Virus record (IMG/VR): IMGVR_UViG_3300022173_000064
Location: 624 to 64,623 of that record
Direction: 5' to 3' (one strand)
Length of the DNA stretch: 64,000 bases
From: a virus
Taxonomy: Duplodnaviria; Caudoviricetes
Part shown: in pieces, positions 1 to 32,760 of the stretch
Position numbering within the stretch: the first letter of the stretch is position 1
Layout of the letters: every line of letters begins with the position of its first letter
Translations under genes and position numbers: made by a program
Notes under the pieces: generated by a model
The model's input: only the letters and a program-made list of their open reading frames with translations
Databases searched by the model: none
What the model was told of the DNA's origin: nothing

Positions 1-144
1 GTGCTTGGTATTCCAAATCTTCCACGACCGCTCGTCCACAAAATGGCCGCGAGGGCGAGTTTTCCAGCGCAAGACGCCCGTTCTCTTGCTGTAAGAGAAA
101 CACTGGCGAAGAAACTCGACATCTGGCAAGGTTTTAGCAGCCAT
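1..144 (-). CDS. HNH homing endonuclease, N-terminal part (runs off window edge)
   Basis: Not in ORF track. Minus-strand ATG at 144 preceded by GGAG; reads MAAKTLPDVEFLRQCFSYSKRTGVLRWKTRPRGHFVDERSWKIWNTKH, typical of the N-terminus of phage HNH(-AP2) endonucleases; TATAAT on minus strand at 213-218. Confidence 0.7.
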   Translation of the reverse strand, partial: MAAKTLPDVEFLRQCFSYSKRTGVLRWKTRPRGHFVDERSWKIWNTKH

Positions 145-246
145 TGGCTTGTCTCCATACTGGCCAAGGTTAGGGGCGCTCAGTCTGTGACTAGCAGGCA
201 GGGCGTCCCGGCATTATAGGGGCAGGAGGCAAAAATCGCTACGCCT

Positions 247-3200
247 GTGATACAAACGGCATTCGTCACGGGCGAGGTCTCGCCTGCGCTGTTCGGCCAC
301 GTCGATTTGGTGCGCATGCACGCCGCAGCATCGACGATGCGCAACCTGTGGCCATCGTACCGCGGCGGCGCCTATTCCCGCGCCGGAACTGAATTTGTAG
401 GGTTTTCCAAGCAGACCGGCCGCGCCTATCCTCCGCGCATGATCCCGTTCCAGTTTTCGATCAACCAGGGCCTCGCTCTGGAATTCGGCAACTATTACAT
501 GCGGGTGATTTTCGACGGTGGCTACGTCACCGAGGCCCCGTACATCATCAGCGGCGCGACGCAGGCCAACCCGTGCGTGCTCACCGTGACGGCCACGAGC
601 TCGCTCGATTCGGTGACCCCGATCAATTCGGCGGTGTCGGCCTCATACGTCCAAGGGGACACGATATCGCTGGCCGGGGGCACATTCTCGACCCGGGCGG
701 TTGTGACGGTCGGGCAGACCCTGCTTTCGAGTGTGGCGATCAACGCGCGGGGGCAGGGCTACAACGGCGGCGAGATCATCACCTTATCGGGCGGCAGCGC
801 GGTTGCGCGAGCGTCAGTCCAAGTCGTGACCACGCGCGTTGTGGCGGTTGATCCGGTACCGAAATATGTTGGCGCCGGCGGCACGCCAGGCGCTGCGGTC
901 CTGACCGGCACCACGGGGACCGGAACGAAATTCCAAGTCAATGTCACGATCGGCGGGCTTGGGAATATCACGGCGGTAGGGTCGATTGTCGCGGTTGGAT
1001 CCTATACGGCCAATCCGTCGACCGGGACTTTTGGCGCGTCAACGGACACGATGAGCGGGGGTGGATTTGGCGATCCTCCAATCCTCGGGCTGGCGATGGA
1101 GATCGCCACGATTTCGATCGTCAATCCGGGCCAATACCTCACCAACTCCGCCACGTTCACTCAATTTTCCACCACGGGCAGCGGGACAGGAGCGACGTTC
1201 CAGACGGTAATTTTCGGCGTCTACAACGCGACGGTGACGACGGCGGGAAATTACACGGTACTACCCACCAATCCGGTTGCGCAGTTTGCGACCAGCGGGA
1301 CCGGGGCTGGGGTGACACTAACTGCGTCGTGGTTGAGTTCGCCGACGCTTTCGACGGGAGATTGGGTCTATGTCGATGACGTCGGCGGCATGACGCAATT
1401 GAACGGGCGGACATTTGTCGCGAGCGTTTCGGGCAGCAACATTTCGCTGTTCGATGTCTACGGCAATCAGATCAATTCCTCGGCCTATGGGGCCTATACC
1501 TCGGGCGGCACGGCCTCGCGCATCTACACTCTCGCCACCCAATATTCCGAGGTCGACCTGCGGTGGATCAAGTTCACGGAATCCGCCGACACGATGTCGC
1601 TGTGCTGCGTCAATCAGTCGACGGGAACGGAATATCCACCGGTCGACCTGTCCAGATCTTCGGATACCGACTGGGCTTTCACGCCGGCGGTACCGGTGCC
1701 GTCCATATCCCCTCCCACGGGAACGTCGCTCTCGGCAAGCACTCAGCCGGCGAGCCCGACGACGGACGCGGGGTATTCCTACGTCGTGACCGCGATCGCG
1801 GACGACGGGACCGAAAGCATCGCGTCCAATATCGGCAGCCTCGCCGATGTGATCAACATCGGTTCGACGGCCGGAACGATCTATGTTTCATGGTCCGGAT
1901 CTGTCGGGGCAAACGAATATTTCATCTACAAGGCCACCCCGTCGGTAAACAAAAGCGGCTCGGGGACCGGAATTCCGTCGTCCGGCGCACTGTTCGGCTA
2001 TGTCGGGTCCGCCTATGGGCAGACGTTTTTTGACACGAATATCGTCCCGGACTTCTCTCAGGTGCCGCCTCTCCATCGCAACCCGTTCGCGCGTGGGCAG
2101 ATTCTTGCGGTTCGAACGACCGCCGGCGGCTCCGGTTACACTTCGGCCCCCACAGTGACCATAAACACATTCACCGGGGGCGGTGCGGTGATCCTGCCTA
2201 TTGTGCAGAGTGGCGCCGTGGTGGCCTACATCGTCAAGGACAACGGCTCCAATTACGCGCCAACGGATACCGTCACGATCTCGGGCGGCGGCGGCGCGAG
2301 CGCGACGGCTACGCTCACGATCGGAGCACAGACCGGCACCTATCCGGGCGTGGTCGCGTATTTCCAGCAGCGCCGATTCTACGCCTATACCCTGAACCAG
2401 CCCGATACCTATTTTGCGTCGCAGCCAGGGGCGTTCAACAATTTCGACCGGCGCATTCCGACGATCGACAGCGACGCATTCGACGGAACGCCGTGGTCGG
2501 TGCAGGTCAATGGCATCCAGTTCATGGTCCCGACCTCGGGTGGCCTGGTGGTTTTGACCGGCCTCGAGGCCTACTTCCTGACAGGCCAGGGCGGCAGCGC
2601 GTTCACTCCGCAGCCGGTCACGCCATCCAGTCAGTCCGCGGTGCCGCAGGGGTTCAACGGCTGTTCGGCCACGGTGCCGCCGATCCGCATTTACCAGGAT
2701 GTGCTCTATGTGCAGGCGAAAGGCTCGAAATATCGGGACTTCGCTTTCAACATGAACCAAAACACCTATACCGGCGACGACATCACGGAAAATTCCGCCC
2801 ATCTGTTCGACGGCCACACGATCGAGGAGCACGCATGGTGCGAGGAGCCGTATCGGTTGCTCTGGGCCGTGCGCAGCGACGGGATTTTGCTGTGCGATAC
2901 ATGGGTCAAGGCCGAGAAGGTTAACGGGTGGAGCCGACACGATACATTCGGCACGTTTGAAAGCGTGTGCTCGGTGACCGAGCCGCCGGTGGATGCCCTC
3001 TATTGTGCGACGCAACGGCTGATCGGATCGAATACGGCCTACGTCGTCGAGCGCATGAACGATCGGCTTTGGAAAACCGCAGAGGATCCGTGGTGCGTCG
3101 ATTGCGGTCTCTCCTACGCCCAAGATGAGCCGGACGCGACACTGGTCGCGAGCTCGTCTACCGGGCTCGGTTCGTTGACGGGCGTCACGAACCTGGTCGG

Positions 3201-4188
3201 CGGATCGGGCTACAGCGCGGGCACCACGGCGACCGTGGTCGACGATAACGGGCTCGGACCCGGCACCGGCGCCGTGGCAAGCGTGACCGTGGTCGCCGGC
3301 GTCATCACCGCTATTACCTTCCCCACGCCCGGCGCTGGCTATGTCAGCCCTGAGTTGGTCATCACCGATCCGGCCGGCAGCGCTGGGGGCACCGGGGCCT
3401 CGGCGGACGTCGTATTGAGCAACGTCGCGACCTTTACGGCCAGCGCCAGCGTGTTCGTGGTCGGCGATATCGGGCGCGTCATCCGCATGGGCGGCGGGGT
3501 CGCCACGATTACCGCGCGCACCAGCGGGACCGTCGTCACCGGCCAGCTTACCAGTCCGATTCGGACCGTCATTCCGAACAGCGGCGGCACCGCGGCGCCG
3601 GCCGCGTCGGGCACATGGACATTGAGCACCCCGACGACCACCGTTAGCGGCCTGTGGCCCTTGGTCGGCGCCACCGTGACCGGCATTGCCGATGGTGTGG
3701 AGATCGATCCGCAGGTGGTTTCCGCCACCGGTACGATCACGCTGGACGTCGCAGCCAGCCAGATCATCGTCGGCATGGCGTTCCTGCCCCAATTGCAGAG
3801 CGTCTACCTCGATGCCGGCGAGCCGACCGTTCAAGGGCAGCGCAAGAAGATCGCCGAAGTGACGGCGCGCGTGCAGGCGTCAGGGGATTTCACGATCGGG
3901 TCGAACCAGCCGGACGGATCGGTGCAAAGCCCGATGCAGAACGCTCCTCGATGGCAGAATATGACGGACGCGCCGAACCCGGCCAAAAATCCCTACAACA
4001 GCCGGACCAAGCCCCTGTTCACCGGCGACATCCGCATTCCGGTCCAGGGCGGCTATCAGAAGCCAGGGCAGGTCGCGATCGAGCAGCCGCATCCGTACCC
4101 GCTGCAGATCCTTGCGTTTATTCCTGAGGTATTGTCGGGCGACAAGCCATCGCAGGCGGCGCCGGAGAAACGAGGTCGCAATGGCTGA
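247..4188 (+). CDS. Tail tubular protein B / nozzle (T7 gp12, P22 gp10-like) with FCCH-like and Gly/Thr-rich inserts
   Basis: N-terminal QTAFVTGEVSP and RGGAYSRAGT, central YPGVVAYFQQRRFY, C-terminal VNGWSRH, FESVC, QPHPYPLQIL motifs; precedes internal virion genes. True start may be ATC at 235. Confidence 0.85.
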   Translation: MIQTAFVTGEVSPALFGHVDLVRMHAAASTMRNLWPSYRGGAYSRAGTEFVGFSKQTGRAYPPRMIPFQFSINQGLALEFGNYYMRVIFDGGYVTEAPYIISGATQANPCVLTVTATSSLDSVTPINSAVSASYVQGDTISLAGGTFSTRAVVTVGQTLLSSVAINARGQGYNGGEIITLSGGSAVARASVQVVTTRVVAVDPVPKYVGAGGTPGAAVLTGTTGTGTKFQVNVTIGGLGNITAVGSIVAVGSYTANPSTGTFGASTDTMSGGGFGDPPILGLAMEIATISIVNPGQYLTNSATFTQFSTTGSGTGATFQTVIFGVYNATVTTAGNYTVLPTNPVAQFATSGTGAGVTLTASWLSSPTLSTGDWVYVDDVGGMTQLNGRTFVASVSGSNISLFDVYGNQINSSAYGAYTSGGTASRIYTLATQYSEVDLRWIKFTESADTMSLCCVNQSTGTEYPPVDLSRSSDTDWAFTPAVPVPSISPPTGTSLSASTQPASPTTDAGYSYVVTAIADDGTESIASNIGSLADVINIGSTAGTIYVSWSGSVGANEYFIYKATPSVNKSGSGTGIPSSGALFGYVGSAYGQTFFDTNIVPDFSQVPPLHRNPFARGQILAVRTTAGGSGYTSAPTVTINTFTGGGAVILPIVQSGAVVAYIVKDNGSNYAPTDTVTISGGGGASATATLTIGAQTGTYPGVVAYFQQRRFYAYTLNQPDTYFASQPGAFNNFDRRIPTIDSDAFDGTPWSVQVNGIQFMVPTSGGLVVLTGLEAYFLTGQGGSAFTPQPVTPSSQSAVPQGFNGCSATVPPIRIYQDVLYVQAKGSKYRDFAFNMNQNTYTGDDITENSAHLFDGHTIEEHAWCEEPYRLLWAVRSDGILLCDTWVKAEKVNGWSRHDTFGTFESVCSVTEPPVDALYCATQRLIGSNTAYVVERMNDRLWKTAEDPWCVDCGLSYAQDEPDATLVASSSTGLGSLTGVTNLVGGSGYSAGTTATVVDDNGLGPGTGAVASVTVVAGVITAITFPTPGAGYVSPELVITDPAGSAGGTGASADVVLSNVATFTASASVFVVGDIGRVIRMGGGVATITARTSGTVVTGQLTSPIRTVIPNSGGTAAPAASGTWTLSTPTTTVSGLWPLVGATVTGIADGVEIDPQVVSATGTITLDVAASQIIVGMAFLPQLQSVYLDAGEPTVQGQRKKIAEVTARVQASGDFTIGSNQPDGSVQSPMQNAPRWQNMTDAPNPAKNPYNSRTKPLFTGDIRIPVQGGYQKPGQVAIEQPHPYPLQILAFIPEVLSGDKPSQAAPEKRGRNG

Positions 4189-4654
4189 ATTCCGCGTCAT
4201 CGAAGCCCGGGAGCATCATTGCGGCGCCATCGTCCGGCGGCTGCGAGAGGGGCAACGCACCGCCCTGATCGGCCTTGGGGTCAACCCGCACCGGGAGATC
4301 AGGACGAATTTCGATACGTCGGCATTCCGGCGCGCGTGGATGGTCGACGGCCGGCTGGGGGCGCTGTTCGGGGTCACCGGACCTCTGCTGGCGGCGCGCG
4401 GCTATTGCTGGCTCGCCATGTCTCACGAGGGGACGAAATACCCCGTGGAGATTGTGAAAGAGACGCGACGGCAATTTGGCGCTATCATGCAGACGAAACG
4501 GGAGCTTTACACCACGCTTTTGCCGGAGGACGGGGCCGCGTTGCGATTTGCGGACTTTCTCGGGTTTGAGCAGGCGCACACGGCGCCGGTTCCCTATGGC
4601 ACGGGGCGTGTGATAGCGGTTCGTTATAGGCCGGATTTGGCGAGGGCAGCATAA
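4181..4654 (+). CDS. Putative GNAT-fold protein, T7 gp13-like
   Basis: ATG overlaps nozzle stop (ATGGCTGA); GALFGV..GYCWL and ALRFADFLGF motifs; position between nozzle and internal virion proteins. Confidence 0.6.
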   Translation: MAEFRVIEAREHHCGAIVRRLREGQRTALIGLGVNPHREIRTNFDTSAFRRAWMVDGRLGALFGVTGPLLAARGYCWLAMSHEGTKYPVEIVKETRRQFGAIMQTKRELYTTLLPEDGAALRFADFLGFEQAHTAPVPYGTGRVIAVRYRPDLARAA

Positions 4655-4656
4655 CC

Positions 4657-5229
4657 GTGGCATTCGTGGCAGCAGCATTGCCGGTTTTGAGCGCGATCGG
4701 CGCCGGCGTCGGCGCCGTGAGCACCGTCATGGGCGGCATTTCATCGCGCAACCAGGCGAACTACCAAGCGGAAATCGCCAAGAACAACCAGACCATCGCC
4801 ATCCAGAACGCCGCGCGCGCGGAGCAGGCAGGCAACGTGCAGGCCGAGGCGCAGGGCCGCAAGGGAGCCGCGCGGCTCGCCGGGATCAAGGTAGGGCAGG
4901 CGGCAAGCGGGATCGACGTGAACAAGGGAACGCCAGTCGACGTGCAGGCTGGGCAGCGCGAGATCAATCAGCTGGACACCGAGACGGTGCTGAGCAACGC
5001 CCAGCTCCATGCCTACGGCTACCGGACTCAGGCGATGAATTTCGAGGCCGAGGAGCGGGCGCAGCGATCCAAAGCGGACAATGCCGTCCCCGCGGCGCTG
5101 TTGAAGGCCGGCGGCGGCCTGCTCGCCAACGCATCATCGCTCAGCGGAAAGTGGACGACGGGAGGTGGATTCGGCGCCGATCAAAGCACGGAAGCCGAGG
5201 ATTTAGCCTCCGGCATCAGGCCGGTATGA
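4657..5229 (+). CDS. Internal virion (ejection) protein, T7 gp14-like
   Basis: Ala/Gly/Gln-rich helical protein with hydrophobic N-terminus and ASGIDVNKGTPVDV motif; synteny. Confidence 0.65.
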   Translation: MAFVAAALPVLSAIGAGVGAVSTVMGGISSRNQANYQAEIAKNNQTIAIQNAARAEQAGNVQAEAQGRKGAARLAGIKVGQAASGIDVNKGTPVDVQAGQREINQLDTETVLSNAQLHAYGYRTQAMNFEAEERAQRSKADNAVPAALLKAGGGLLANASSLSGKWTTGGGFGADQSTEAEDLASGIRPV

Positions 5230-5232
5230 TCC

Positions 5233-7683
5233 ATGGCGCAGAACGAATACACCGAGGGCGTCCCGACGGTTTCCCCGTCAACGGAGGGTGGCGCTTCGTA
5301 CCAGAGCGGACGCGGCGCGGACGCCGAGGCGTTCGGCGCGGGCCTCGCACATGGCGGCGAGCAGCTGGGCCAAGGCATGGTCACCGCTGGCAAGTTTTTC
5401 GGCAAGGTAGCCGCCGACGACGCCAGTAACCAGTTCCAGGACTTTGCGTCGAAACTGCTCCATGGCGACCCGAACCGGATGTCCAAGGGGCCCGACGGGA
5501 CCGACGTTCCGGATACCGGGTATCTCGGGCTCAAGGGCCGCGCCGCGCTGGATCAGCGCCCGGCGGTGCAAAAACAGATCGACGATCGGATCAAGGAATT
5601 ACGCTCCGGGCTGCAGACGCCCGAGCAACAGCTGGAATTCGACAATTTCTCCCGGCGGTATCGAACCGGCGTGGTCGAGCGGGTGGGAAACCATGCCGAC
5701 CAGCAATCCACAGGCTGGTATGCCTCGGTCAACACCGCGACTGCCAAACTGGCGATGGATCACATCTCGAACAATTGGGACAAACCGAACGAGGTCGCGG
5801 CCGGCGCGGCTGATCTCACCGCGGCTTATGTCCGAAATGCCCAGATCAAGGGCGGCAGCGAACTCGAAATCCGCCAGGCCATGAACGATGCGCGGCGGGA
5901 CGCGCTCGGGGCGCAGCTGGACGCGATGGCGGTCAAGGATCCGGCGCGCGCAATGAGTGTGCTGGATAAAAACCGGGATATCGCCGGGGTAAAATACGAC
6001 GAAATGTCGAATAAGTTCCGCACGCGCGCCGAGCAGCAGCAAGGCATCGGTGCGGGCCTCGAGGCGATCAAAAGGACATACCAGCCGGGGCTGGGGCAAA
6101 AGACGGTCTACACAGAGGTCCAACTTTCTACCGCGGGAGCACCCTATGGGATTTCCGGCTCCTATCTGTCACGGGTGCATGCGCTCGAGGGTGACGGGGT
6201 GAGCCCGACCGGCGCCAAGGGACCGTTCCAGTTCGTCGATTCCACCGCAAAGCAGTACGGCCTCAAAGACCCGTTCAATCCGGAGGAAGCGGCCGCCGCC
6301 GCCGCGCGTCTGGCGGCAGACAACAAGGCCGGCCTGACGCGGCAACTCGGCCGCGCGCCGACGGACGCCGAGCTCTATCTGGCGCATCAGCAGGGCGCCG
6401 GCGGCGCGGCCGCGCTGCTCTCAAACCCCACCATGACGGCTCAACAAGCGCTGATGACGCTGCCGAGATATGCCAACGATCCCGCGGCGGCAGCTCGAGC
6501 AATCCGGGTAAATGGCGGCGACCCGGAAGCGTCGGCGGCGCAGTTCGCCAACATGTGGACGACGAAGTTCAACGGCGCGCCGGGGATGGCGACCGCGCAA
6601 CGGCGGGCGAGCGCACTGCAGGCGGTGCTGGAAAACCCCAACCTGACGCCGCAGGCGCAGGCGCACGCCATTACCTACGTCAACCAGCAGATGGCGGCAC
6701 AAAAGATCGCCATGGAGGAGGACGACAAGGCCAAGAAAACAGCAAACGATCAGGTCCAGGCGGAACTCACGCGCCAGATCATCGCCGGCAACGACCCTAA
6801 TATCATCGGGAAGATTGCCAATTCCGGGCTCGGCGCCACCGAGATCCAGAACCTCTATAATTTTGCCACGAGCCGCGGCGGGGTGCAGGATGACTTGCAA
6901 TATGGACCCGGATACCCGCAGGCGTTCAAGGCCATCTTGGCGCCGGATAACGACCCCTCGAAAATCACCGACGTAGCGTCGATTATCGCGCGCGGCGGGC
7001 CCGGCGGCGATCTGAGCAAGCGCGGCGTCGCCGAACTCGTCAACGCCCTGACCGCGATCAGGAAGCAGCCGGATCAGGCCGGCGTCTCCATGGTGAAGTC
7101 GAAGCAGCTTGAATATTACCTCGGCCAGTTCTCGCCAGAGCCGGAATACAAGGGCATGCCCCGCAACCAGAAGGGGCTCGACCGGTACAATCGCGAGTTC
7201 ATTCCGGCCTTTGAATCGGCCTATGCCCAATGGATCAAGGCCGGAAAGGATCCGATCGCATTCTTGCAGGACACGAAGCAGATGGACGCGATCGCAAATC
7301 GCATCTATCCGCCCGATCAACGGCGCATGGACATGCTGTTTTCCAGCGGTGCCGCGCCAACCGCGCCGCCGGTGCCGCCGCCGCCCGCTCCAGCCGGCGT
7401 CGATCAGAAGGCGTGGGACCGGTTCATGGTCGCGCCGCCGAACAGCGCGGCCGGAAAGCCGTGGACGACCGAAAATTGGGCGAAGGCGATTGAGAAATTG
7501 CGAGCCAATCCGTCCGAGGACATGAAAAAGGCGTTCGACAAGCATTTTGGCCCGAGCGGCTATACCGCCAAGGACATTTTGAGTAGGCTCCCGCCGTCGA
7601 ATGCCGTGAAGCGTCCGAACGTCGTGGCTGCACCGCCCTTTGCGCCCAATGCCGAAAGGGCTGAGGTTGGGATTAGTCAATAA
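5233..7683 (+). CDS. Internal virion protein with lytic transglycosylase-like domain
   Basis: YLSRVHALEG..GAKGPFQFVDSTAKQYGL..ELYLAHQQGAGGAAALL (about 6150-6430) is an SLT/lysozyme-like signature inside a helical ejection protein. Confidence 0.75.
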   Translation: MAQNEYTEGVPTVSPSTEGGASYQSGRGADAEAFGAGLAHGGEQLGQGMVTAGKFFGKVAADDASNQFQDFASKLLHGDPNRMSKGPDGTDVPDTGYLGLKGRAALDQRPAVQKQIDDRIKELRSGLQTPEQQLEFDNFSRRYRTGVVERVGNHADQQSTGWYASVNTATAKLAMDHISNNWDKPNEVAAGAADLTAAYVRNAQIKGGSELEIRQAMNDARRDALGAQLDAMAVKDPARAMSVLDKNRDIAGVKYDEMSNKFRTRAEQQQGIGAGLEAIKRTYQPGLGQKTVYTEVQLSTAGAPYGISGSYLSRVHALEGDGVSPTGAKGPFQFVDSTAKQYGLKDPFNPEEAAAAAARLAADNKAGLTRQLGRAPTDAELYLAHQQGAGGAAALLSNPTMTAQQALMTLPRYANDPAAAARAIRVNGGDPEASAAQFANMWTTKFNGAPGMATAQRRASALQAVLENPNLTPQAQAHAITYVNQQMAAQKIAMEEDDKAKKTANDQVQAELTRQIIAGNDPNIIGKIANSGLGATEIQNLYNFATSRGGVQDDLQYGPGYPQAFKAILAPDNDPSKITDVASIIARGGPGGDLSKRGVAELVNALTAIRKQPDQAGVSMVKSKQLEYYLGQFSPEPEYKGMPRNQKGLDRYNREFIPAFESAYAQWIKAGKDPIAFLQDTKQMDAIANRIYPPDQRRMDMLFSSGAAPTAPPVPPPPAPAGVDQKAWDRFMVAPPNSAAGKPWTTENWAKAIEKLRANPSEDMKKAFDKHFGPSGYTAKDILSRLPPSNAVKRPNVVAAPPFAPNAERAEVGISQ

Positions 7684-10600
7684 TGGACGACGGGGCCCTG
7701 CTTCCTACCGAAGATCCATTTGCCGACCTTGATCCGGAGCGCGCAGCCGCGCCAGCACCCACTGCGCCGGCCGGTAAGCCCCAGGTGCCGATCTCGCTGC
7801 CGGATGGCGTCGTGGCGCCGGTGGCCAACGATAACGAGCAGGGTAACCCTTTCGCCGAGTTCGGCGACGTCGGGCTGAGCGAAACGACCGCCAAGGGGGC
7901 ATTCGCCCGCGGCGCCGAGCGCGCGGCTCTCCCGGCGGCCGCCAGCCTCGTTGGTGCCGGCGCTGGCGCGGCGGGTGTGGTGGCGGGCGCGGCGGCTCTG
8001 GGGACGACCATCGGCCCATGGGGAACCGTCGGCGGCGCGATCGTCGGCGGCCTGGCTGCGGGCTATGGCGGGCAGGTAGCGCAAAGCTGGGTTTTGTCCA
8101 AATTGCCGGATTCGTGGGTCGATACCCTCGGGCTGGATGACCGGATGCAGCGGCTGGACGAGGCACAGCACGGCACCGCGTCGTTCCTTGGCGGTCTGGT
8201 CCCGTACACCTTGGCCATGCGCCCCGGCTCACAGCCTCTTATTGCGCTGCCAGAAAACGCTACCGCGATGCAGCGGGTGATGTCGAACAAGGCCACATCG
8301 GCCGTGTTCGGCGGCGCCATCAACGGCGGCATGGAACTCGGGCAGGAATACATCCAGGGCGAGGTCGACTGGCAAAAGGTCGGCATCGCGACCGCATTCG
8401 GGATGGTGTGGAACCAGCCGACGAAGTTCGGCCAGGCGCTGACATCGGTCGGAGAGCGGCCATTCCGCGCCCCGACTGTCCGGGCGCCAACCGTGGCCGA
8501 GGCCGGCGATCTCAAGGTGATGGGCCCGGGCGTCACGGAATCGGTGTTTCAGGGCACACAGGAGCAGGCCCCGAGCGCTGCGATGACAGCGCAGGAAACC
8601 GCGCGCGCCGAACGGATGGCGCTTGGTGAGACGCCGGAGCCCGATCTGCACGGCATCGCGCGGCAGATGGAGCCGGAATTATTCGCGGCCTATGACGACT
8701 TGCAGCGCCAGCGGGACACCTTTGCGGCGTGGCACGGCGAGGGCGGCGGTCATCCGGCCACAGAGGCGCACCTGGCTGCGACCGACGCGCAACTCAGGGA
8801 ATTGTCGCCGGAGATCGCGGCGGCGTACCGGCGGGCCGAGGAGACGCTGGGCCCGGTCGTCGACGAGCCAGCGCCGTTCCGGTCCTTTGCCGAGATGCTG
8901 GCGGCGCGAGAGAATGAAACAGGGAGGCCACCCGATGCAGGACAAATCCAAGCGCCGCAAGAAACCGCACCCGGCGGAGGACCGGGCATTCCGGATGGCG
9001 GTAAAATACCAAATCCCGTCGTCGGCGCTGGATCAGTTGCGGATGCTGGCGTTCCTGGCCCTCAACGAACCATTGGTGAACAACGGGCGAGTATCGCCAA
9101 CGATGTTGCAGAAAAGCTGATCGCGGCCGGCCGGCCGGAGGACGAGGCGCGCGCGGCTGGGCAGTTGGTTGCGGCGCGGTATGTCACCAGGGCCAGCCGG
9201 TTCGAGGGCAAACTTGGCACGCCCGAGGAGCTTTATGCGCGGGAAGGTGCCGCGATCGCGGGCCCGGAAGGTCGCCCGCGGCCGCCAGCGCAGGTCATCA
9301 GGGAGGTCGCGGCGCGCGGCGCGCAACAGAACGAGGCCGCACGCGCGGCGGACACTGCGGCGGTCGAGACAGCCGCGAAACCCCATGAGCCCGGCCTGAT
9401 CTCGCAGGACTTCGACACGTCCGATCGGATCAAAAACGAGTGGCGCAAGGCTGCGACGTTCACCGAGACGGAACCGTTTGTTGCTGCGTCGTGGCACAAC
9501 CAGCGGGCGCTCGGAGGGGTTGGAGATCAGATCGCCGCCGCGGTCGGCGTCGAATTCAAAAATCCCGGCATCAAGGCGCGGTCGACCGAGGATATCGCCA
9601 CGATCAAGGACGAGGGAAAGCGCAAACTGGCCGAGGCCAGCCGGCGCCGATTGGAAACCAAGGCCAAAAAGCACGGCATCGGCGGCGTCACGGACCAGGT
9701 TCGCGGCGGGTTCGACGTCCAGACGCCGGCCCAGGCCGACCAGGTAATTGCCGAACTGTCGAAGCATTTTCCTGTGGTCGACGAGGGTTGGCAAACCACG
9801 GCTGCGGGGTATTTCGACCGAAAGGCTTATGTCCGGTTCCCGGACGGCATGATCGGCGAGGTGCAGATTTGGCCGCCCGGCATGTTCCCGGTCAAGGATC
9901 GCGCGCACGGGCTTTATGAGGGCGTGCGGGAATTGCCGTCGTGGCACCCGATGGTGCCGCAGATCAACAAATCAGCCGCAGAGGTTTACGCCCCCGTGCG
10001 TGCCGCGCTCTCGGACGAGTGGAAGGCGGTTTTGGGCAGCGGCGGCAGCGAGCCGAACCGCTTGCCGAACGCGCCGGCCGAAAGCACCACGGCATCCGAG
10101 GCGTCTGCGGCATTGACCTCGGACCATTTTCCGCCGGAAAGCACCCAAGCCTCCGAGGGCGTCCAGAAACAGGGTTCGCCGTCCAGCGAACAGGATTTAA
10201 CTTCTGACATGTTTGGGACTCCTGCTGAGAATGTAGGGCCTCACGCCGAACCTGTCAACTCCGCGATTGACGCCGCCGACAAGATTAACTCGCTTTCGCC
10301 GGGAGAGCAAAAGCGAGAATTGCCGAAATACACAGCGACCGCAGAGCAGCCCGCAGGCGTCGACCAGCCGGCCGGCGTGTTCATGTTCGATCCGACCGCG
10401 ATCAACGTCGACGCCAAGCGATTCCAGTTCAAGAGCGGCGGCGACGAATACGGGGTGACGGGGGCGCTGCGGAGCGTCACCAAATGGAATCCGGCGAAAG
10501 CGCAGGCAATCATCGTCTGGGAGCAGACCGACGGCAAATTGTTCGTGGCCGACGGCCATCAGCGCGCGGGCCTGGCGCGGCGCCTGACCGAGCAGGGCAA

Positions 10601-13600
10601 AGCCAAGGGCATCGAATTGCCGGGCATCCTGTACCGGGAAAAGGACGGGGTTTCGGCGGACGATATCCGCGCCATCGCCGCGGTGACGAACATTGCGAAC
10701 GGGTCCGGGTCGGCGATCGACGGCGCCAAGGTGCTGCGGGCGCGGCCGGACCTGATGGATGGTTCCCTGCCGTTGTCGGTCGGCAAGGGCAAGCAGGCTG
10801 CGGCGCTGGCGCGGCTGGGCGATGAACCGTTCAAAATGGTGGTGAACGACGTCGTTCCCGAGCATTACGGGGCCGTGGTCGGGGAATTGATCCCGAACGA
10901 CCCGGCGCGGCAAGAGGCGGCGATCAAGGCCATCGCCCGGTTCGAGCCGAAGAATGCCGACGAGGCAGCGGTGCTGACCCAGCGGGTTGCGCAGGCCGAA
11001 CTCGCCAAGGCCGAGGAGGGCGCGCAGGGGTCGATGTTCGGCGACCTCGAGACGGTGGAATCGACCGCCGGCGAGGAGATGAAGATCGTCGGCCGGGCGA
11101 TCGCGGACCTGAAAAAGGACAAGGGGCTATTCCGCCGCGTTCTGGCGAATGCCGAGCGGATTGAGCAGACCGGTTCACAGATTGAGCGCGGCGCGGCGGA
11201 ATCCATCGCTTCGGACGCGGAAGTGTTTGCTAAAACGCTATCTTCGGATGCATATTCTGCGGGACCGATCCGGGACGAACTTGTTACCGCTGCAAGGGAT
11301 CTGAAAAATGGAAAATCCAGCCTCGCCGACGCTTCGGAGAGAATTGTCGCTGCCCTCCGGACCCAGGTTGAAGCGCATGGCCTTAATCGGCCTCGGGATA
11401 TCGGAGGCGTTGAACCGCAAGCCGCAAAAGAGTTCGCGCAAAACAAAACCGTCGCAGAACTCGAATCCGAATACCACCGCGCCCAAGAAGTAACGCGCGA
11501 AGCTTATCAGGTCGACGAGCCCAACCCCGACACGAAGGCGGCCGCACTGGCTGCCGAGAAGGCCGCGCGCGAGGCGTGGCTTTCTGCCTCTCGCAGCGAT
11601 TCGCTGTTCGAGCCCGGCGCCGAGGGCAAACCCCAACAACTGATCCCCGGCGTCGCGCCAGTCACGCAGCGCGACCTGATCCAAGCCGCAGCGAACAAGC
11701 CGCTCAAGCCCCGCGTCGCACAGAAAGATGCCGGCGGCCTGTTCGGCGATTCGATGGATCAGAAAGAACTGTTCCAGATCGCCCGCGGCAAGATCACCAT
11801 CTCCCCGAACAAGCGGCCGATCATCCGCCTGCTCAAGGATGCAAATGCCAGTACTTTTGTCCACGAATCTGGGCATCAGTACCTTGAGGAGATGATGCGC
11901 GACGTGGCGCACAAGGACGCGCCGGACGTCATCAAGAAGGACGCCAAGACGGTCCGCGACTGGTTCGGGATCGGCGCCGACGACGAGATCAAGACCAAGC
12001 ACCATGAGAAATTCGCCCGCGGTTTCGAGCAATACATCCGGGAGGGTGTCGCACCGTCGAAGGAACTGGCGGGCGTGTTTTCCAAGTTCCGGGACTGGCT
12101 GCTTTCGATCTACCAGAGCATTCGCGGCCTCGGGCAGGAGATCAACCCGGACATCCGCGCCGTGTTCGATCGGCTGCTGGAAATGGAGCCGCAGCGAACC
12201 GTGGTTGCGCGGCCGCAGGACCAGCCGTCGCTCCTGCACGATATCCATGAGGCGGAAGCCCGCACCATCGAACCGCACGAGGCCGAGCCGGCAATGGACC
12301 GCGTTCTGGCCGAGCATCAGCGTTATACGACCGAATTCCCGCCGGAGGTCTCCCGTGAGCTCGAAACCGCAAGAGCCGAAATCCAAGCCGAAGATGCTAT
12401 CGCTGCCGGAGAAGGTGGCGCTGGCGGAATCGGAGTTCAACCTGTGGAGCCGGGTGGCAGCCCGCCCGGGGCTCAGCCCGAAGGCGGCGCTGGCGGCGCG
12501 GAACGCGGCCCGGTCAAGCCGAGCGGCGATGCAACTCGGGCAGAAGGCGTTAAGCCTGTCACCGACCGCCGATCCGGCCTTGGCGACCATGCTTCAACCG
12601 CCCTTGCACCCGGGCCTGCAGACCTCTTTGGCCCCAGAGAGTCCCAGTTCACCGACCGAGCCGGGAACATCCGCATAGAGAACCTGACCACGAATGACGA
12701 CGTTGCGCAGGCGATCCGGGATTCGGCGGCGGAGAACAACGATTTCATCGGGGACCGCCGCGGCGTCATTACCGACGGCCAGGTGGTGGAGTTGGCGGAC
12801 GCGCTCGGGATGGACGCCGCGAAGTTGAACCAGCGCCATGTCGGGCAGGCGTTTAACGCCGAGCAGATCGTGGCGGCGCGCAAGTTGCTGATCGAATCGG
12901 CGACAGATGTCTCCGCGGCGATGCGCCGGGCCGCCACGGGCACGGACGAGGACGTCATGGCCTATGCACAGGCCAAGGACCGTCATCAGATGATCCAGGC
13001 GCAGGTGTCCGGGATCACTGCGGAAGCCGGCCGCGCTCTCCGCGCATTCCGCTCGCTGGCCGGGCAGGAAGCCGCAAAGGGCGTCGACCAATTCATCCGC
13101 GAGGCGACAGGCAAAACCCTGTTCCAGCTTCGCCAGGAGGCCCAGCTTGGGCTCTCGCTCGAAACCCCGCAGCAGGTGTCCAAATTCATGATGGACGCCC
13201 AGAACCGGTCCTTTGGCCGGATGGTGTTCGAATTCTGGATCAATTCCATCCTGTCCGGCCCGTCAACGCACGCCACGAACATCATCGGCAACGCCATTTT
13301 GGCGGCGCAGCATTTCGGACCTGAGACGGCGATCGCCGCGCTGCTCGGCCGCGTGCGAAGCGGGATGGGACGCGAGGGGCAGACGGTGCGGTTCGGCGAG
13401 ATCGGCGCAGCGGTCCGGGGCGCGCGCAGCGGCATGGCGCCGGCGCTCATGGCGACTGGCGAGGCGGCCAAAAAGGGCGCCGCGGTGCTCCTGCCGGGCG
13501 AGAAGGTTCACGTCCCGATGGATGTGCAGCCCCACGATGCGCTGGCGATGCGCGGGACGCTGGACGAGGCCGCCAAATACTCGGACCTGGTTCAAGGTAC

Positions 13601-15128
13601 GTTCGGAGCCATGCAGGGGCTCAAGGACGCCATGCTATCGGTTGGCGTGCTGCTCAAGGGCGGCGTCGAGGGATCCCCGCTGATCGGGACGCAGTTTTCG
13701 CACCTTGGGGCCATCCCGGATATTCAGGTGCGAGGCGTCACCGTGGCGCCGATCGGAACAATTGTTCGCGCGCCCGGGCGATTTCTCGCGACTGCCGACT
13801 CGTTTTTCCGCTCGCTCAACTATTCGATGGCAAAGAACGCGCTTGCTTACCGCACTGCGGCGGGTGAGGGGCTGCGCGGGACCGAGTTCGACGCGCGCGT
13901 GGCGGAACTGCGGAGCAGCCCGCCCGAGGCTATGATGGAGGAGGCGCGCGGCGTGGCCGTGTCCGCCACGCTCATGAGCCGCGGCGGTCAATTCGTGCAG
14001 GCTATGAACCGCCTGACATCGGCGACGGTGGACCTCCCGCTGGCCGGCGAGATTGCGCCCCTTAAATTCGTGGCCCCGTTCGTCAACATCGCGGGGCAAA
14101 TCCTCAACCAGTCGATCATCCAGCGCAGCCCAGTCGGACTGCTCTCCAAGGAACTCCGGGCCGATCTGGCTGGCAAGAATGGCTCCGTCGCGCAGGACAT
14201 GGCGACGGCACGCATGCTGCTCGGGACGGCGATCACGGTCGGCGTCGGCATGCTGGCCGCGGAGGGGTTCGCCACGGGCTCGGGGCCGAAAAAGCCTGAG
14301 GAAAATTCGATGTGGCGGATGGCCGGCAACCAGGCGCACAGCGTCCGGATCGGCTCCCTCTGGTACAAGGTGGACAAGCTGGGTCCGCTCGGCTTGCTGA
14401 TGGGCATGGCCGCGGACCTTTACGAGGTTTCGCAGAAGGCATCCGCCGGCGAATACACCAAGGCCGCGGCCTTCCTGCATCACGCATTCGTGCAGAACAT
14501 CCTCGATCAGTCGTTCATGAAGGGGCCGGCCGACCTGATCCAAGCCGTCAGTGACCCCGACCGGTACGGCGAGCGCTATATCCGCAATTTCCTCTCCAGC
14601 TATGTCCCGAACGTCCTGGCGCAGCACGCGCGGCGGGAGGATCCATATATGCGGGAAACGCGGACGGTGATCGACGCGATGAAGGCGCGCATCCCCGGCG
14701 TTTCCGAATCGCTTGCGCCAAAGATCGACATTTGGGGCGAGCCGATGCCGAACCAGGAAGCACTCGGCGGCAAGGGTGTTACCGGCATCTATGTGAAGAA
14801 GATGAACGACGACCCCGTGAACAAGGCGATGCTCGCCTTGGGCGTTACCCCGGGAGCGGTCGAGAAGAAGATTCGCGGCTTTGAGCTCTCGCCAGAGCAA
14901 TACGAGTTTTACGCCCGCACAGCCGGCCGCATGACCAAGATGCGGCTCGATACGATCGTCAAATCCCCGGATTTTGAACGGTGGCCGCGCGAGGCCAAGG
15001 TGAGCGTGATCCAGGAGGTTATCAACGGCTGCCGTGAGACGGCCCGCGGCGCCACCATGGCGAAGTGGCCGAACATCCCGCGCGACGCCGCCGATCTGAA
15101 ACTGAAAAAACTGAGGGGCGAAAAATGA
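7683..15128 (+). CDS. Giant polyvalent ejection protein (RelA/SpoT-like, ParB-like, zincin-like HExxH domains; gp16/LPD38-like C-terminus)
   Basis: 2481 aa; DQVRG..GYFD..GEVQIW..HGLYE (about 9490-9975); VADGHQR (about 10540-10565); STFVHESGH..HEKFARGFEQY (about 11850-12040); helical C-terminal region ending ..PKIDIWGEP..; last gene of ejectosome cluster. Confidence 0.85.
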   Translation: MDDGALLPTEDPFADLDPERAAAPAPTAPAGKPQVPISLPDGVVAPVANDNEQGNPFAEFGDVGLSETTAKGAFARGAERAALPAAASLVGAGAGAAGVVAGAAALGTTIGPWGTVGGAIVGGLAAGYGGQVAQSWVLSKLPDSWVDTLGLDDRMQRLDEAQHGTASFLGGLVPYTLAMRPGSQPLIALPENATAMQRVMSNKATSAVFGGAINGGMELGQEYIQGEVDWQKVGIATAFGMVWNQPTKFGQALTSVGERPFRAPTVRAPTVAEAGDLKVMGPGVTESVFQGTQEQAPSAAMTAQETARAERMALGETPEPDLHGIARQMEPELFAAYDDLQRQRDTFAAWHGEGGGHPATEAHLAATDAQLRELSPEIAAAYRRAEETLGPVVDEPAPFRSFAEMLAARENETGRPPDAGQIQAPQETAPGGGPGIPDGGKIPNPVVGAGSVADAGVPGPQRTIGEQRASIANDVAEKLIAAGRPEDEARAAGQLVAARYVTRASRFEGKLGTPEELYAREGAAIAGPEGRPRPPAQVIREVAARGAQQNEAARAADTAAVETAAKPHEPGLISQDFDTSDRIKNEWRKAATFTETEPFVAASWHNQRALGGVGDQIAAAVGVEFKNPGIKARSTEDIATIKDEGKRKLAEASRRRLETKAKKHGIGGVTDQVRGGFDVQTPAQADQVIAELSKHFPVVDEGWQTTAAGYFDRKAYVRFPDGMIGEVQIWPPGMFPVKDRAHGLYEGVRELPSWHPMVPQINKSAAEVYAPVRAALSDEWKAVLGSGGSEPNRLPNAPAESTTASEASAALTSDHFPPESTQASEGVQKQGSPSSEQDLTSDMFGTPAENVGPHAEPVNSAIDAADKINSLSPGEQKRELPKYTATAEQPAGVDQPAGVFMFDPTAINVDAKRFQFKSGGDEYGVTGALRSVTKWNPAKAQAIIVWEQTDGKLFVADGHQRAGLARRLTEQGKAKGIELPGILYREKDGVSADDIRAIAAVTNIANGSGSAIDGAKVLRARPDLMDGSLPLSVGKGKQAAALARLGDEPFKMVVNDVVPEHYGAVVGELIPNDPARQEAAIKAIARFEPKNADEAAVLTQRVAQAELAKAEEGAQGSMFGDLETVESTAGEEMKIVGRAIADLKKDKGLFRRVLANAERIEQTGSQIERGAAESIASDAEVFAKTLSSDAYSAGPIRDELVTAARDLKNGKSSLADASERIVAALRTQVEAHGLNRPRDIGGVEPQAAKEFAQNKTVAELESEYHRAQEVTREAYQVDEPNPDTKAAALAAEKAAREAWLSASRSDSLFEPGAEGKPQQLIPGVAPVTQRDLIQAAANKPLKPRVAQKDAGGLFGDSMDQKELFQIARGKITISPNKRPIIRLLKDANASTFVHESGHQYLEEMMRDVAHKDAPDVIKKDAKTVRDWFGIGADDEIKTKHHEKFARGFEQYIREGVAPSKELAGVFSKFRDWLLSIYQSIRGLGQEINPDIRAVFDRLLEMEPQRTVVARPQDQPSLLHDIHEAEARTIEPHEAEPAMDRVLAEHQRYTTEFPPEVSRELETARAEIQAEDAIAAGEGGAGGIGVQPVEPGGSPPGAQPEGGAGGAERGPVKPSGDATRAEGVKPVTDRRSGLGDHASTALAPGPADLFGPRESQFTDRAGNIRIENLTTNDDVAQAIRDSAAENNDFIGDRRGVITDGQVVELADALGMDAAKLNQRHVGQAFNAEQIVAARKLLIESATDVSAAMRRAATGTDEDVMAYAQAKDRHQMIQAQVSGITAEAGRALRAFRSLAGQEAAKGVDQFIREATGKTLFQLRQEAQLGLSLETPQQVSKFMMDAQNRSFGRMVFEFWINSILSGPSTHATNIIGNAILAAQHFGPETAIAALLGRVRSGMGREGQTVRFGEIGAAVRGARSGMAPALMATGEAAKKGAAVLLPGEKVHVPMDVQPHDALAMRGTLDEAAKYSDLVQGTFGAMQGLKDAMLSVGVLLKGGVEGSPLIGTQFSHLGAIPDIQVRGVTVAPIGTIVRAPGRFLATADSFFRSLNYSMAKNALAYRTAAGEGLRGTEFDARVAELRSSPPEAMMEEARGVAVSATLMSRGGQFVQAMNRLTSATVDLPLAGEIAPLKFVAPFVNIAGQILNQSIIQRSPVGLLSKELRADLAGKNGSVAQDMATARMLLGTAITVGVGMLAAEGFATGSGPKKPEENSMWRMAGNQAHSVRIGSLWYKVDKLGPLGLLMGMAADLYEVSQKASAGEYTKAAAFLHHAFVQNILDQSFMKGPADLIQAVSDPDRYGERYIRNFLSSYVPNVLAQHARREDPYMRETRTVIDAMKARIPGVSESLAPKIDIWGEPMPNQEALGGKGVTGIYVKKMNDDPVNKAMLALGVTPGAVEKKIRGFELSPEQYEFYARTAGRMTKMRLDTIVKSPDFERWPREAKVSVIQEVINGCRETARGATMAKWPNIPRDAADLKLKKLRGEK
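8935..9120 (+). CDS. Nested +1-frame small ORF (61 aa) in giant gene
   Basis: SD AGGGAGG at 8921-8927; MQDKSKRRKKPHPAEDRAFRMAVKYQIPSSALDQLRMLAFLALNEPLV..; most codons end in G/C in this frame. Confidence 0.45.
   Translation: MQDKSKRRKKPHPAEDRAFRMAVKYQIPSSALDQLRMLAFLALNEPLVNNGRVSPTMLQKS
9986..10210 (-). CDS. Nested antisense gene (74 aa), candidate antitoxin for the RelA/SpoT-like domain
   Basis: SD AGGAG 8 nt upstream of ATG; own TTGACA-N17-TACATT promoter; W/F/C-containing globular-looking product where the sense frame is an S/T/A/P/E linker. Confidence 0.65.
   Translation of the reverse strand: MSEVKSCSLDGEPCFWTPSEAWVLSGGKWSEVNAADASDAVVLSAGAFGKRFGSLPPLPKTAFHSSESAARTGA
10230..10258 (-). 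promoter_or_regulatory. Sigma70-type promoter TTGACA-N17-TACATT for antisense gene
   Basis: Minus strand GTTGACAGGTTCGGCGTGAGGCCCTACATT; resembles the early promoter at 26863-26891. Confidence 0.65.
11308..11493 (+). CDS. Possible nested +1-frame small ORF (61 aa)
   Basis: AGGGA about 9 nt upstream; RLKRMALIGLGISEALN segment; lies in an atypical-codon stretch of the giant gene. Confidence 0.3.
   Translation: MENPASPTLRRELSLPSGPRLKRMALIGLGISEALNRKPQKSSRKTKPSQNSNPNTTAPKK
12394..12678 (+). CDS. Nested +1-frame ORF (94 aa) in giant gene
   Basis: MLSLPEKVALAESEFNLWSRVAARPGLSPKAALAARNAARSSRAAMQLGQKAL; about 27 of the first 30 codons end in G/C, while the main frame is a G/P linker with A/T-ending codons. 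Weak SD. Confidence 0.45.
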   Translation: MLSLPEKVALAESEFNLWSRVAARPGLSPKAALAARNAARSSRAAMQLGQKALSLSPTADPALATMLQPPLHPGLQTSLAPESPSSPTEPGTSA

Positions 15129-26862: not shown

Positions 26863-26891
26863 AATCTAGGGGCGGTTTTTCGACCTGTCAA
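26863..26891 (-). promoter_or_regulatory. Leftward early promoter TTGACA-N17-TAGATT
   Basis: Near-consensus hexamers followed by hairpin leader and SD. Confidence 0.75.
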
Positions 26892-32732: not shown

Positions 32733-32760
32733 TTGACATAGCTAAAACCGCCATTAGATT
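32733..32760 (+). promoter_or_regulatory. Promoter TTGACA-N16-TAGATT for accessory operon
   Basis: Consensus hexamers followed by a hairpin leader similar to that at 26817-26862. Confidence 0.75.

Follow-up and report, generated by a model that had tools for sequence, protein, structure and literature searches.

The window analysed here is a stretch of 64,000 nucleotides from a phage of the Caudoviricetes (IMG/VR record IMGVR_UViG_3300022173_000064, positions 624 to 64,623), and our subject is a gene of 74 codons that lies on its minus strand inside the plus-strand gene of a giant virion protein, at the end of the part that encodes a Tas1-like synthetase domain. The reading that we consider somewhat probable is that this antisense gene is real, has its own promoter and gives a product that is most likely the cognate inhibitor of the Tas1-like domain. 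One stretch of DNA seems to encode both the poison and the antidote. That the antisense open reading frame (ORF) at 9986-10210 is a genuine gene is in itself highly probable, because of its conservation, the selection acting on its frame and its membership of a protein family. The features on which the argument turns are the following.

7683..15128, plus strand: gene of the giant polyvalent virion (ejection-type) protein, a single ORF of 2481 amino acids
9450..10034, plus strand: Tas1-like RelA/SpoT-fold synthetase (toxSAS-like) domain, sense residues about 590-784, recognised by fold, profile and motifs
9986..10210, minus strand: antisense gene (product P0002), 74 amino acids plus stop, recognised by conserved start, frame and stop, frame selection, a profile family and an AF2 (AlphaFold2) model
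10219..10223, minus strand: Shine-Dalgarno (SD) sequence AGGAG, 8 nt before the ATG
10230..10258, minus strand: sigma-70-type promoter-like site TTGACA-17-TACATT, with the -35 at 10258-10253 and the -10 at 10235-10230
10035..10210, plus strand: sense-frame 'shadow' linker, residues 785-843, rich in S, T, A, E, P, G and Q

The antisense ORF and its expression signals

The antisense ORF begins with an ATG at 10210-10208, ends with a stop at 9988-9986 and lies wholly within the giant gene; its peptide contains three W, four F and two C. A sequence-only reading of the window had described a promoter TTGACA-N17-TACATT, an SD AGGAG and a 74-residue ORF containing W, F and C, all of which are found where it placed them. 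Its remark that the third codon positions of the antisense ORF and of the sense gene coincide is borne out by the comparison of the two frames, and its statement that the 3' end of the ORF abuts the end of the synthetase domain is right to within about 15 codons, the stop falling in the last helices of the domain (sense residue 768-769). The length of the ORF is by itself no evidence of a gene, since the antisense frame is nearly stop-free over the giant gene (38 stops in 2482 codons) and contains eleven open stretches longer than the 74-codon ORF.

The promoter-like site had been compared in the same reading with a second leftward site through a shared sequence. The pattern TTGACAGGT...CCTA(C/G)ATT does occur exactly twice in the window, at 10230-10258 and 26863-26891, with 0 occurrences expected, for a pattern that was picked post hoc. 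An unbiased scan of both strands of the 64 kb, with TAnnnT required at the -10, at least 5/6 matches in the -35 and 10/12 or more in all, yields three sites (10258-10230 and 26891-26863 on the minus strand, 32733-32760 on the plus strand), where a Markov-1 simulation expects 0.9 +/- 0.95. The site of the antisense gene ranks best in the surrounding 9 kb. The two siblings, given for context, are:

26863..26891, minus strand: promoter-like site TTGACA-17-TAGATT, found by the pattern match and by the 64-kb scan
32733..32760, plus strand: promoter-like site TTGACA-16-TAGATT, found by the 64-kb scan

The leftward genes downstream of the first sibling include an exonuclease and a RecT-like annealing protein. 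Judged by its bases, the promoter of the antisense gene belongs to the same class as these two other strong host-type promoter-like sites of the phage, and we infer that 'early-type' is a fair label for it. Just upstream, at 10289-10317 (minus strand), is a hairpin with a 12-bp stem and a T-containing tail, which could be a promoter insulator or a chance structure in coding sequence.

Conservation of the cassette in related loci

The comparison rests on a close set of ten sequences with 66-87% identity in the region (L001, L003, L005-L011 and the window itself) and on the more distant homologues for which DNA is available: L012 (38%), L017, L019/L020, L021 and L022. The giant protein of L017 has a different architecture, with ART-PolyVal, ddrB-ParB and LPD38. 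In 15 of the 15 distinct loci with DNA across the junction, the synthetase-like domain is directly followed, on the opposite strand, by a gene of the same family; 14 of these genes are embedded and preceded by a -35, 17 nt and -10 site, an SD and a start codon, while in L021 the two genes are convergent.

All ten close homologues keep the antisense ATG, the frame and a similar ORF length (74-82 codons), and eight of the ten have the stop at the identical column. The -10 reads TAnnTT in 11/11 aligned loci. Close homologues have TTGACA or TTGACG as their -35, and L012 has TCGACA. An insertion of 18 nt in L009 and L003 parts the old -35 from the -10 and brings a TTGCCA to the 17-nt spacing. The 'TA' of the -10 is encoded by the sense codons GTA, ATA or CTA in 12/12 loci, against a background in which such codons make up 4.5% of those for Val, Ile and Leu; the -10 codon of L012 is the sole CTA among the 113 Leu codons of its gene. 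The SD core AGGA or GGAG, present in all the close homologues, is obtained largely through the uncommon sense codon CCT. It appears from these alignments that the promoter is kept at the nucleotide level, through rare codons and a compensating insertion. The cassettes of the distant embedded loci are as follows.

L012: TCGACA-17-TAGATT, GGAGG, GTG, 74 codons
L017: TTGCCA-17-TAGAGT, GGAGG, ATG, 76 codons; family profile E 1e-22
L019: TTGACA-17-TAAATT, GGAGG, ATG, 71 codons; from a genome much less GC-rich
L022: TTGACG-17-TATATC, GGAGG, TTG; weaker profile match

Selection on the antisense frame

An OLGenie-type count was made with a pairwise implementation of our own, in which the possible and observed single-base differences among the ten close sequences are classed by their effect in the two frames, the ORF region being sense residues 768-843 and the background the rest of the giant gene. 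The antisense dSN/dSS, which relates changes affecting only the antisense protein to changes silent in both frames, is 0.28 over the ORF (bootstrap 0.15-0.45) and 1.00 in the rest of the gene, and the antisense dNN/dNS is 0.45 against a background of 0.83. The pairs of sequences are interdependent, for which reason the control is provided by the remaining windows of the alignment: a value as low as 0.28 was reached in 0 of 5000 random codon samples and in 0 of 981 contiguous control windows, whose minimum was 0.69. The sense frame is relaxed in the ORF region, with dN/dS of 0.86 and 0.54 against 0.31 and 0.37 elsewhere; one example is a change from Arg to Leu in the sense protein that is a silent CGG to AGG in the antisense frame. 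The pattern of substitutions points to purifying selection acting on the antisense peptide.

A family of small proteins older than the overlap

When 1.84 billion representative proteins are searched with a profile made only from the ten embedded peptides, there are 435 matches at E <= 1e-3, of which 81 reach E <= 1e-10; most are 65-100 amino acids long. They outline a widespread family of phage proteins of about 70 residues. An alignment of 87 members follows the pattern (W/F)-(D/E)-G-x-P, EAW, G-x-W, LS..F...FG.LPPLP..AF, and the peptide of the window has all the invariant residues; its A21, W22, W29, P56 and P59 occupy invariant or nearly invariant columns of the 87 sequences. Neither the small protein nor its relatives receive any annotation from Pfam, PHROGs, NCBIfam or PADLOC, apart from one marginal PHROG match at E 0.0075. 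Cultured phages, queried by tblastn with two family members, and plasmids, queried with one, gave no match, and an initial scan of the genome contig collection also found nothing.

Because many of the matches stem from very short contigs, where they too might be embedded copies, the contexts of family members were inspected. The family gene of L015 is free-standing: it is the last in a run of small genes, its start overlaps the preceding stop as ATGA, as in a translationally coupled operon, and the opposite strand has no ORF spanning it. A second member stands alone within a lambda-like head module. We conclude that the small protein family is older than the overlap, and its existence as ordinary non-overlapping genes gives the antisense gene unusually strong comparative support.

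Other forms of the small domain were met on the way. Tandem copies occur in 15 of the 150 top matches, one of them with five; these proteins of two to five small domains (P0097 with 425 amino acids, P0100, P0101 and others) resemble immunity-domain arrays. In the provirus fragment L014 the small domain lies within an ORF of 355 amino acids (2348-3415, plus strand) that, judged by eye from its sequence, has hydrophobic stretches in its C-terminal part and on that account is probably membrane-anchored. Its neighbours at 667-1290, 1996-2301 and 4185-4943 are a resolvase, an XRE-type regulator and an AbiU2 abortive-infection gene, and the 19-kb record (38% complete) contains no giant gene opposite and no synthetase-like domain; an orphan or defensive use of the small domain is possible there.

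The AF2 model of the small protein, built from ten sequences only, has a predicted local distance difference test (pLDDT) score of 79.8 overall and 82-90 over residues 1-60, and shows a beta-rich, SH3/Tudor-like fold of four strands and a helix. Foldseek found nothing at E <= 1e-3 for it in the PDB or BFVD, and the best Z of VIA-align is only 3.0-3.3. Tis1, the immunity protein of Tas1 (6ox6_B), appears with Z 2.2, a root-mean-square deviation of 3.8 A and 54 aligned residues, at rank 22 of the 44 chains with Z >= 2 among 48,161; the match is suggestive, because the comparison was named before its result, and still lies within the noise of small beta-barrels.

The synthetase-like domain and its shadow linker

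The sequence-only reading had assigned the neighbouring domain to RelA/SpoT, and the fold bears this out though Pfam is blank: PF04607 (RelA_SpoT) matches 0 of 11 domain sequences at E <= 10. The AF2 model of the domain (pLDDT 86.9, predicted template-modelling score 0.81) has as its top Foldseek matches the exported small alarmone synthetase (SAS) 8VX3 (E 6e-8, TM 0.62) and Tas1 (6OX6_A, E 1e-7), followed by SAS1, RelP, Rel and SpoT, and 46 of the 46 PDB matches listed at E <= 1e-3 are RSH/SAS synthetases. The domain profile also finds Tas1 in the PDB, at E 8.7e-4. The catalytic motifs D..R, GY, E.Q and H..Y are invariant in 11 homologues and align with those of Tas1 (D82, R85, G120, Y121, E137, Q139, H153 and Y156 of alignment A5). 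The domain is a divergent RelA/SpoT synthetase branch, detected only by profile-to-PDB and fold comparison; closest in its modelled structure to the exported toxins 8VX3 and Tas1, it is a predicted toxin. RelA/SpoT modules in phage-type polyvalent proteins have already been described (PMC5512222).

Behind the domain, AF2 confidence falls to 41 where the shadow linker begins. Read on the other strand, the linker motifs GSGG, TQASEG and GSPS correspond to PPLP, SEAW and DGEP of the family. The structured parts of the two proteins avoid each other: where the sense strand encodes the disordered linker, the minus strand encodes the folded core of the small protein, and the last helices of the domain face the final 10-15 or so residues of the small protein, which are modelled with low confidence.

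Linkage of the small gene to the domain

The linkage extends to homologues known as proteins. A 'backwards' translation of these, with X at ambiguous positions, was too weak (known positives at E 0.004-23, every weak match lying right behind the domain) and was replaced by a profile of the sense shadow. The shadow is found behind the domain in 34 of 49 domain-bearing polyvalent proteins, whatever module comes next, and in 0 of 41 homologues that lack the domain. Since L012 is among the 15 negatives of this test and yet has the gene in its DNA, the true fraction lies above 34/49. The sequence-only reading had tied the fate of the ORF to that of the SAS domain, and the ORF does follow the domain across architectures and down to about 36-44% identity.

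Three arrangements and a possible intermediate were found. The embedded antisense form is that of the window and 13 other loci. In L021 the genes are convergent and do not overlap: the domain ends a protein of 647 amino acids (85-2028, plus strand), and a small gene of 74 codons (a strong AAGGAG site, ATG; 2030-2254, minus strand), the last of a minus-strand operon, ends 1 nt past the stop of the domain ORF. This arrangement is likely to be ancestral. In L019 the domain-bearing ORF overruns the small gene and stops about 45 codons beyond it, which looks intermediate. The small domain is also found fused in frame behind the synthetase-like domain, in P0240 and the fragment P0107.

A model for the antisense gene and its alternatives

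The model we propose starts from what is observed computationally, namely that the small gene is conserved, is under selection in its frame, belongs to a family and encodes a confidently modelled fold, that the neighbouring domain has a synthetase fold, and that the two are tightly linked genetically; from these we infer the transcription from the antisense promoter, its timing, and the binding and neutralisation of the enzyme. Host RNA polymerase would transcribe the antisense gene from the sigma-70-type promoter at 10258-10230, and translation of the small beta-rich protein would start at AGGAG-N8-ATG. The giant late gene would read through the reverse complement of the small gene, leaving a low-complexity linker behind the domain. 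The small protein would be made independently of the late polyprotein, its promoter being early-type or constitutive, and would for this reason hold the enzyme inactive while virions are assembled in the producing cell, and/or shut off the injected enzyme soon after the entry of the phage DNA into a new cell. Neutralisation of the co-injected enzyme was one of two suggestions of the sequence-only reading, the other being an antisense RNA that limits premature expression of the toxic gene.

That the small protein is a cognate inhibitor of the packaged enzyme, of the immunity or antitoxin type, is the better supposition, suggested by the analogy with known toxin-immunity pairs and by the linkage of the small gene to the domain. 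Tandem arrays and orphan copies are typical of immunity proteins, and those of the small domain fit this type. The broader proposal, that the two strands of one DNA segment encode a toxin domain and its immunity protein, an arrangement that many phage lineages have maintained, with the immunity gene coming first, has in our view an even chance of being correct. The order of events would be, as a conjecture, from convergent genes (L021) through overrun (L019) to the embedded linker of the window, with an in-frame fusion (P0240) in some lineages.

Several points weigh against the proposal. The structural likeness to Tis1 does not rise above noise, many SH3, Tudor and PWWP rows scoring equally, and 6ox6_B was unlisted in a second look with VIA-align; at the sequence level there is none, the family profile giving no match to Tis1 in the PDB. 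Free-standing members occur in L015, of which about 9 kb was examined, and in the provirus fragment L014, with no synthetase-like domain found, so the small protein may act independently of the domain. Co-inheritance could partly reflect hitch-hiking, since the gene is embedded beside the DNA of the domain. The selection count is pairwise on related sequences and has other windows of the same alignment as its only control. The conservation of synonymous sites over the ORF is modest (z 1-2), little more being expected in this frame because the third positions coincide.

The alternative that survives best is that the antisense gene is real and its product is not an inhibitor. It would act either on its own as an early protein, in host take-over or anti-defence, or together with the domain as its cofactor, chaperone or packaging aid, and the gene would owe its location to the convenience, as a linker, of a 'shadow' free of stops. 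What makes this the main alternative is that members stand alone in places where no domain is seen, in records that are partial: the small-gene operon of L015 and the provirus fragment. The member in the head module stands alone as well. An SH3/Tudor-like fold is moreover a generic binding module, and the in-frame fusion in P0240 would suit a cofactor as well as an inhibitor. We nevertheless regard this alternative as rather unlikely: the gene stands strictly behind this one domain, in varied architectures and three arrangements, with 0 of 41 cases in proteins without the domain; a promoter separate from that of the late polyprotein suits an antidote better than a folding partner; and the arrays and orphan copies have the character of immunity proteins.

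We judge it improbable that only the promoter and an antisense RNA are functional, limiting or timing the giant late gene by transcriptional interference or RNA pairing, with the peptide as a by-product. The promoter-like site is kept at the nucleotide level in all the examined loci, head-on transcription into the late gene would plausibly damp it, and a weak hairpin with a short T run lies at 10191-10174, 20-45 nt into the ORF. Left unexplained are the conserved SD and start codon, the constant ORF length, the selection on antisense amino acids, the 435 protein homologues, some of them non-overlapping, and the in-frame fusions. A reading by antisense RNA alone is unneeded because selection acts on the peptide; a secondary effect of the RNA or of transcriptional interference alongside the role of the peptide is possible.

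That the ORF is a chance shadow of a GC-rich gene beside a chance promoter-like string, our initial expectation from the frame statistics, accords with an ordinary length for a nearly stop-free frame and with a promoter comparison made post hoc in the sequence-only reading, but it was dropped after the conservation, selection and family profile results and is now hardly credible, the non-overlapping homologues, the frame-specific selection and the compensating insertion weighing most.

Relation to known systems

The inhibitor model has its closest analogues among the toxSAS enzymes that make (pp)pApp and are neutralised by small Tis1-like domains (PMC11782079). In Tas1-Tis1, the type VI (p)ppApp synthetase effector of Pseudomonas aeruginosa and its immunity protein (6OX6), a RelA/SpoT-fold toxin domain is likewise delivered, and the window domain matches Tas1 best by sequence profile and second best by structure. 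As in Tas1-Tis1 and the FaRel-type toxSAS modules (PMC11782079), the toxin is genetically tied to a small protein of about 75 amino acids; in those systems the small protein blocks the enzyme by binding, and by analogy that of the window may do the same. The differences are considerable. In the window the toxin-carrying gene itself contains the small gene, on its opposite strand and with a promoter of its own; the toxin forms one module of a virion polyprotein, neither an effector of a type VI secretion system nor the toxin of a toxin-antitoxin module; and the small protein is without sequence similarity to Tis1, its structural match (Z 2.2) being at noise level.

The MuF polymorphic toxins of temperate phages with Apk2 (adenosine 3'-pyrophosphokinase) domains (PMC5576092, PMC12226406) are likewise virion-associated (p)ppApp synthetase toxins of the RelA/SpoT type. 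They are paired with immunity proteins, some of them partner-specific, that act by protein-protein interaction (PMC12226406). Compared by description only, their immunity genes are separate cognate genes, none of them nested opposite the toxin gene.

The giant gene itself belongs to the class of polyvalent proteins of phages and conjugative elements (Iyer et al. 2017, PMC5512222), whose phage-type members combine RelA/SpoT, ParB-like, metallopeptidase and LPD modules and have been proposed to be delivered with the DNA. That paper makes no mention of antisense or overlapping genes, its text having 0 occurrences of either word. Whether bacteria and phages have functional antisense protein genes is still disputed; antisense overlapping genes have been described, though they are contested (PMC7457138, PMC8850804, PMC7531306). 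Those of bacteria submitted to OLGenie-type tests (PMC7531306, PMC8850804, PMC9927249, PMC7457138) are likewise embedded, with their own signals and purifying selection in the alternative frame. Most of the reported ones are young, lineage-restricted and overprinted on an older gene, whereas the case of the window is reversed: the antisense gene belongs to an old and widespread family and it is the sense linker of the polyprotein that looks overprinted.

Toxin-immunity pairs and polyvalent proteins are already known, and our literature search found no paper describing this nested arrangement of a toxin and a small gene. What is new is a candidate immunity gene nested opposite a toxin-carrying gene, an old gene overprinted by a growing polyprotein, and the recurrence of this arrangement across many lineages.

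Other observations on the giant gene

The C-terminus of the 2481-residue protein matches a PHROG of internal virion proteins, and the gene just before it (5233-7683) encodes a transglycosylase or lytic tail-type protein. The whole protein has no Pfam family at E <= 0.1, and a megablast of its gene against phages gave no match. Modules found in its homologues are ART-PolyVal, LPD38, ddrB-ParB, Zeta-toxin, GNAT or RelA_SpoT. Homologues that are otherwise similar swap the module ahead of the ParB-like domain, the variants being the Tas1-like domain, Pfam RelA_SpoT (P0014), Zeta toxin/AAA (P0015 and others), ART-PolyVal and GNAT (P0007).

Across the ten homologues the highest conservation of synonymous sites in the giant gene is found at 12414-12545, 11346-11420 and 8931-9005 (sense residues about 1578-1620, 1222-1245 and 417-440), with z up to 4.4, 3.9 and 3.0, all above the region of the antisense ORF. 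Two of these peaks overlap candidate overprinted ORFs in the +1 frame, at 12394-12678 and 8935-9120. The peaks may be further embedded genes or recently exchanged patches.

Implications

Our observations suggest how phages that package a self-toxic enzyme spare the producer cell or silence the enzyme after injection, and they offer a new candidate immunity family for toxins of the (p)ppApp type. The orphan, tandem and probably membrane-anchored copies of the small domain hint that it may also serve hosts or rival elements against incoming toxins. The case of the window shows, too, that what looks like a low-complexity 'linker' in a giant protein can be a gene's shadow, cast from the other strand, which matters for the annotation of polyvalent proteins and for the way in which these grow by read-through. 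If the model is true, the overlap makes the toxin and its antidote inseparable by recombination, the antidote being expressed from an early host-type promoter and the toxin being made late, packaged and injected, and the 'linkers' of polyvalent proteins can conceal whole genes that annotation has overlooked.

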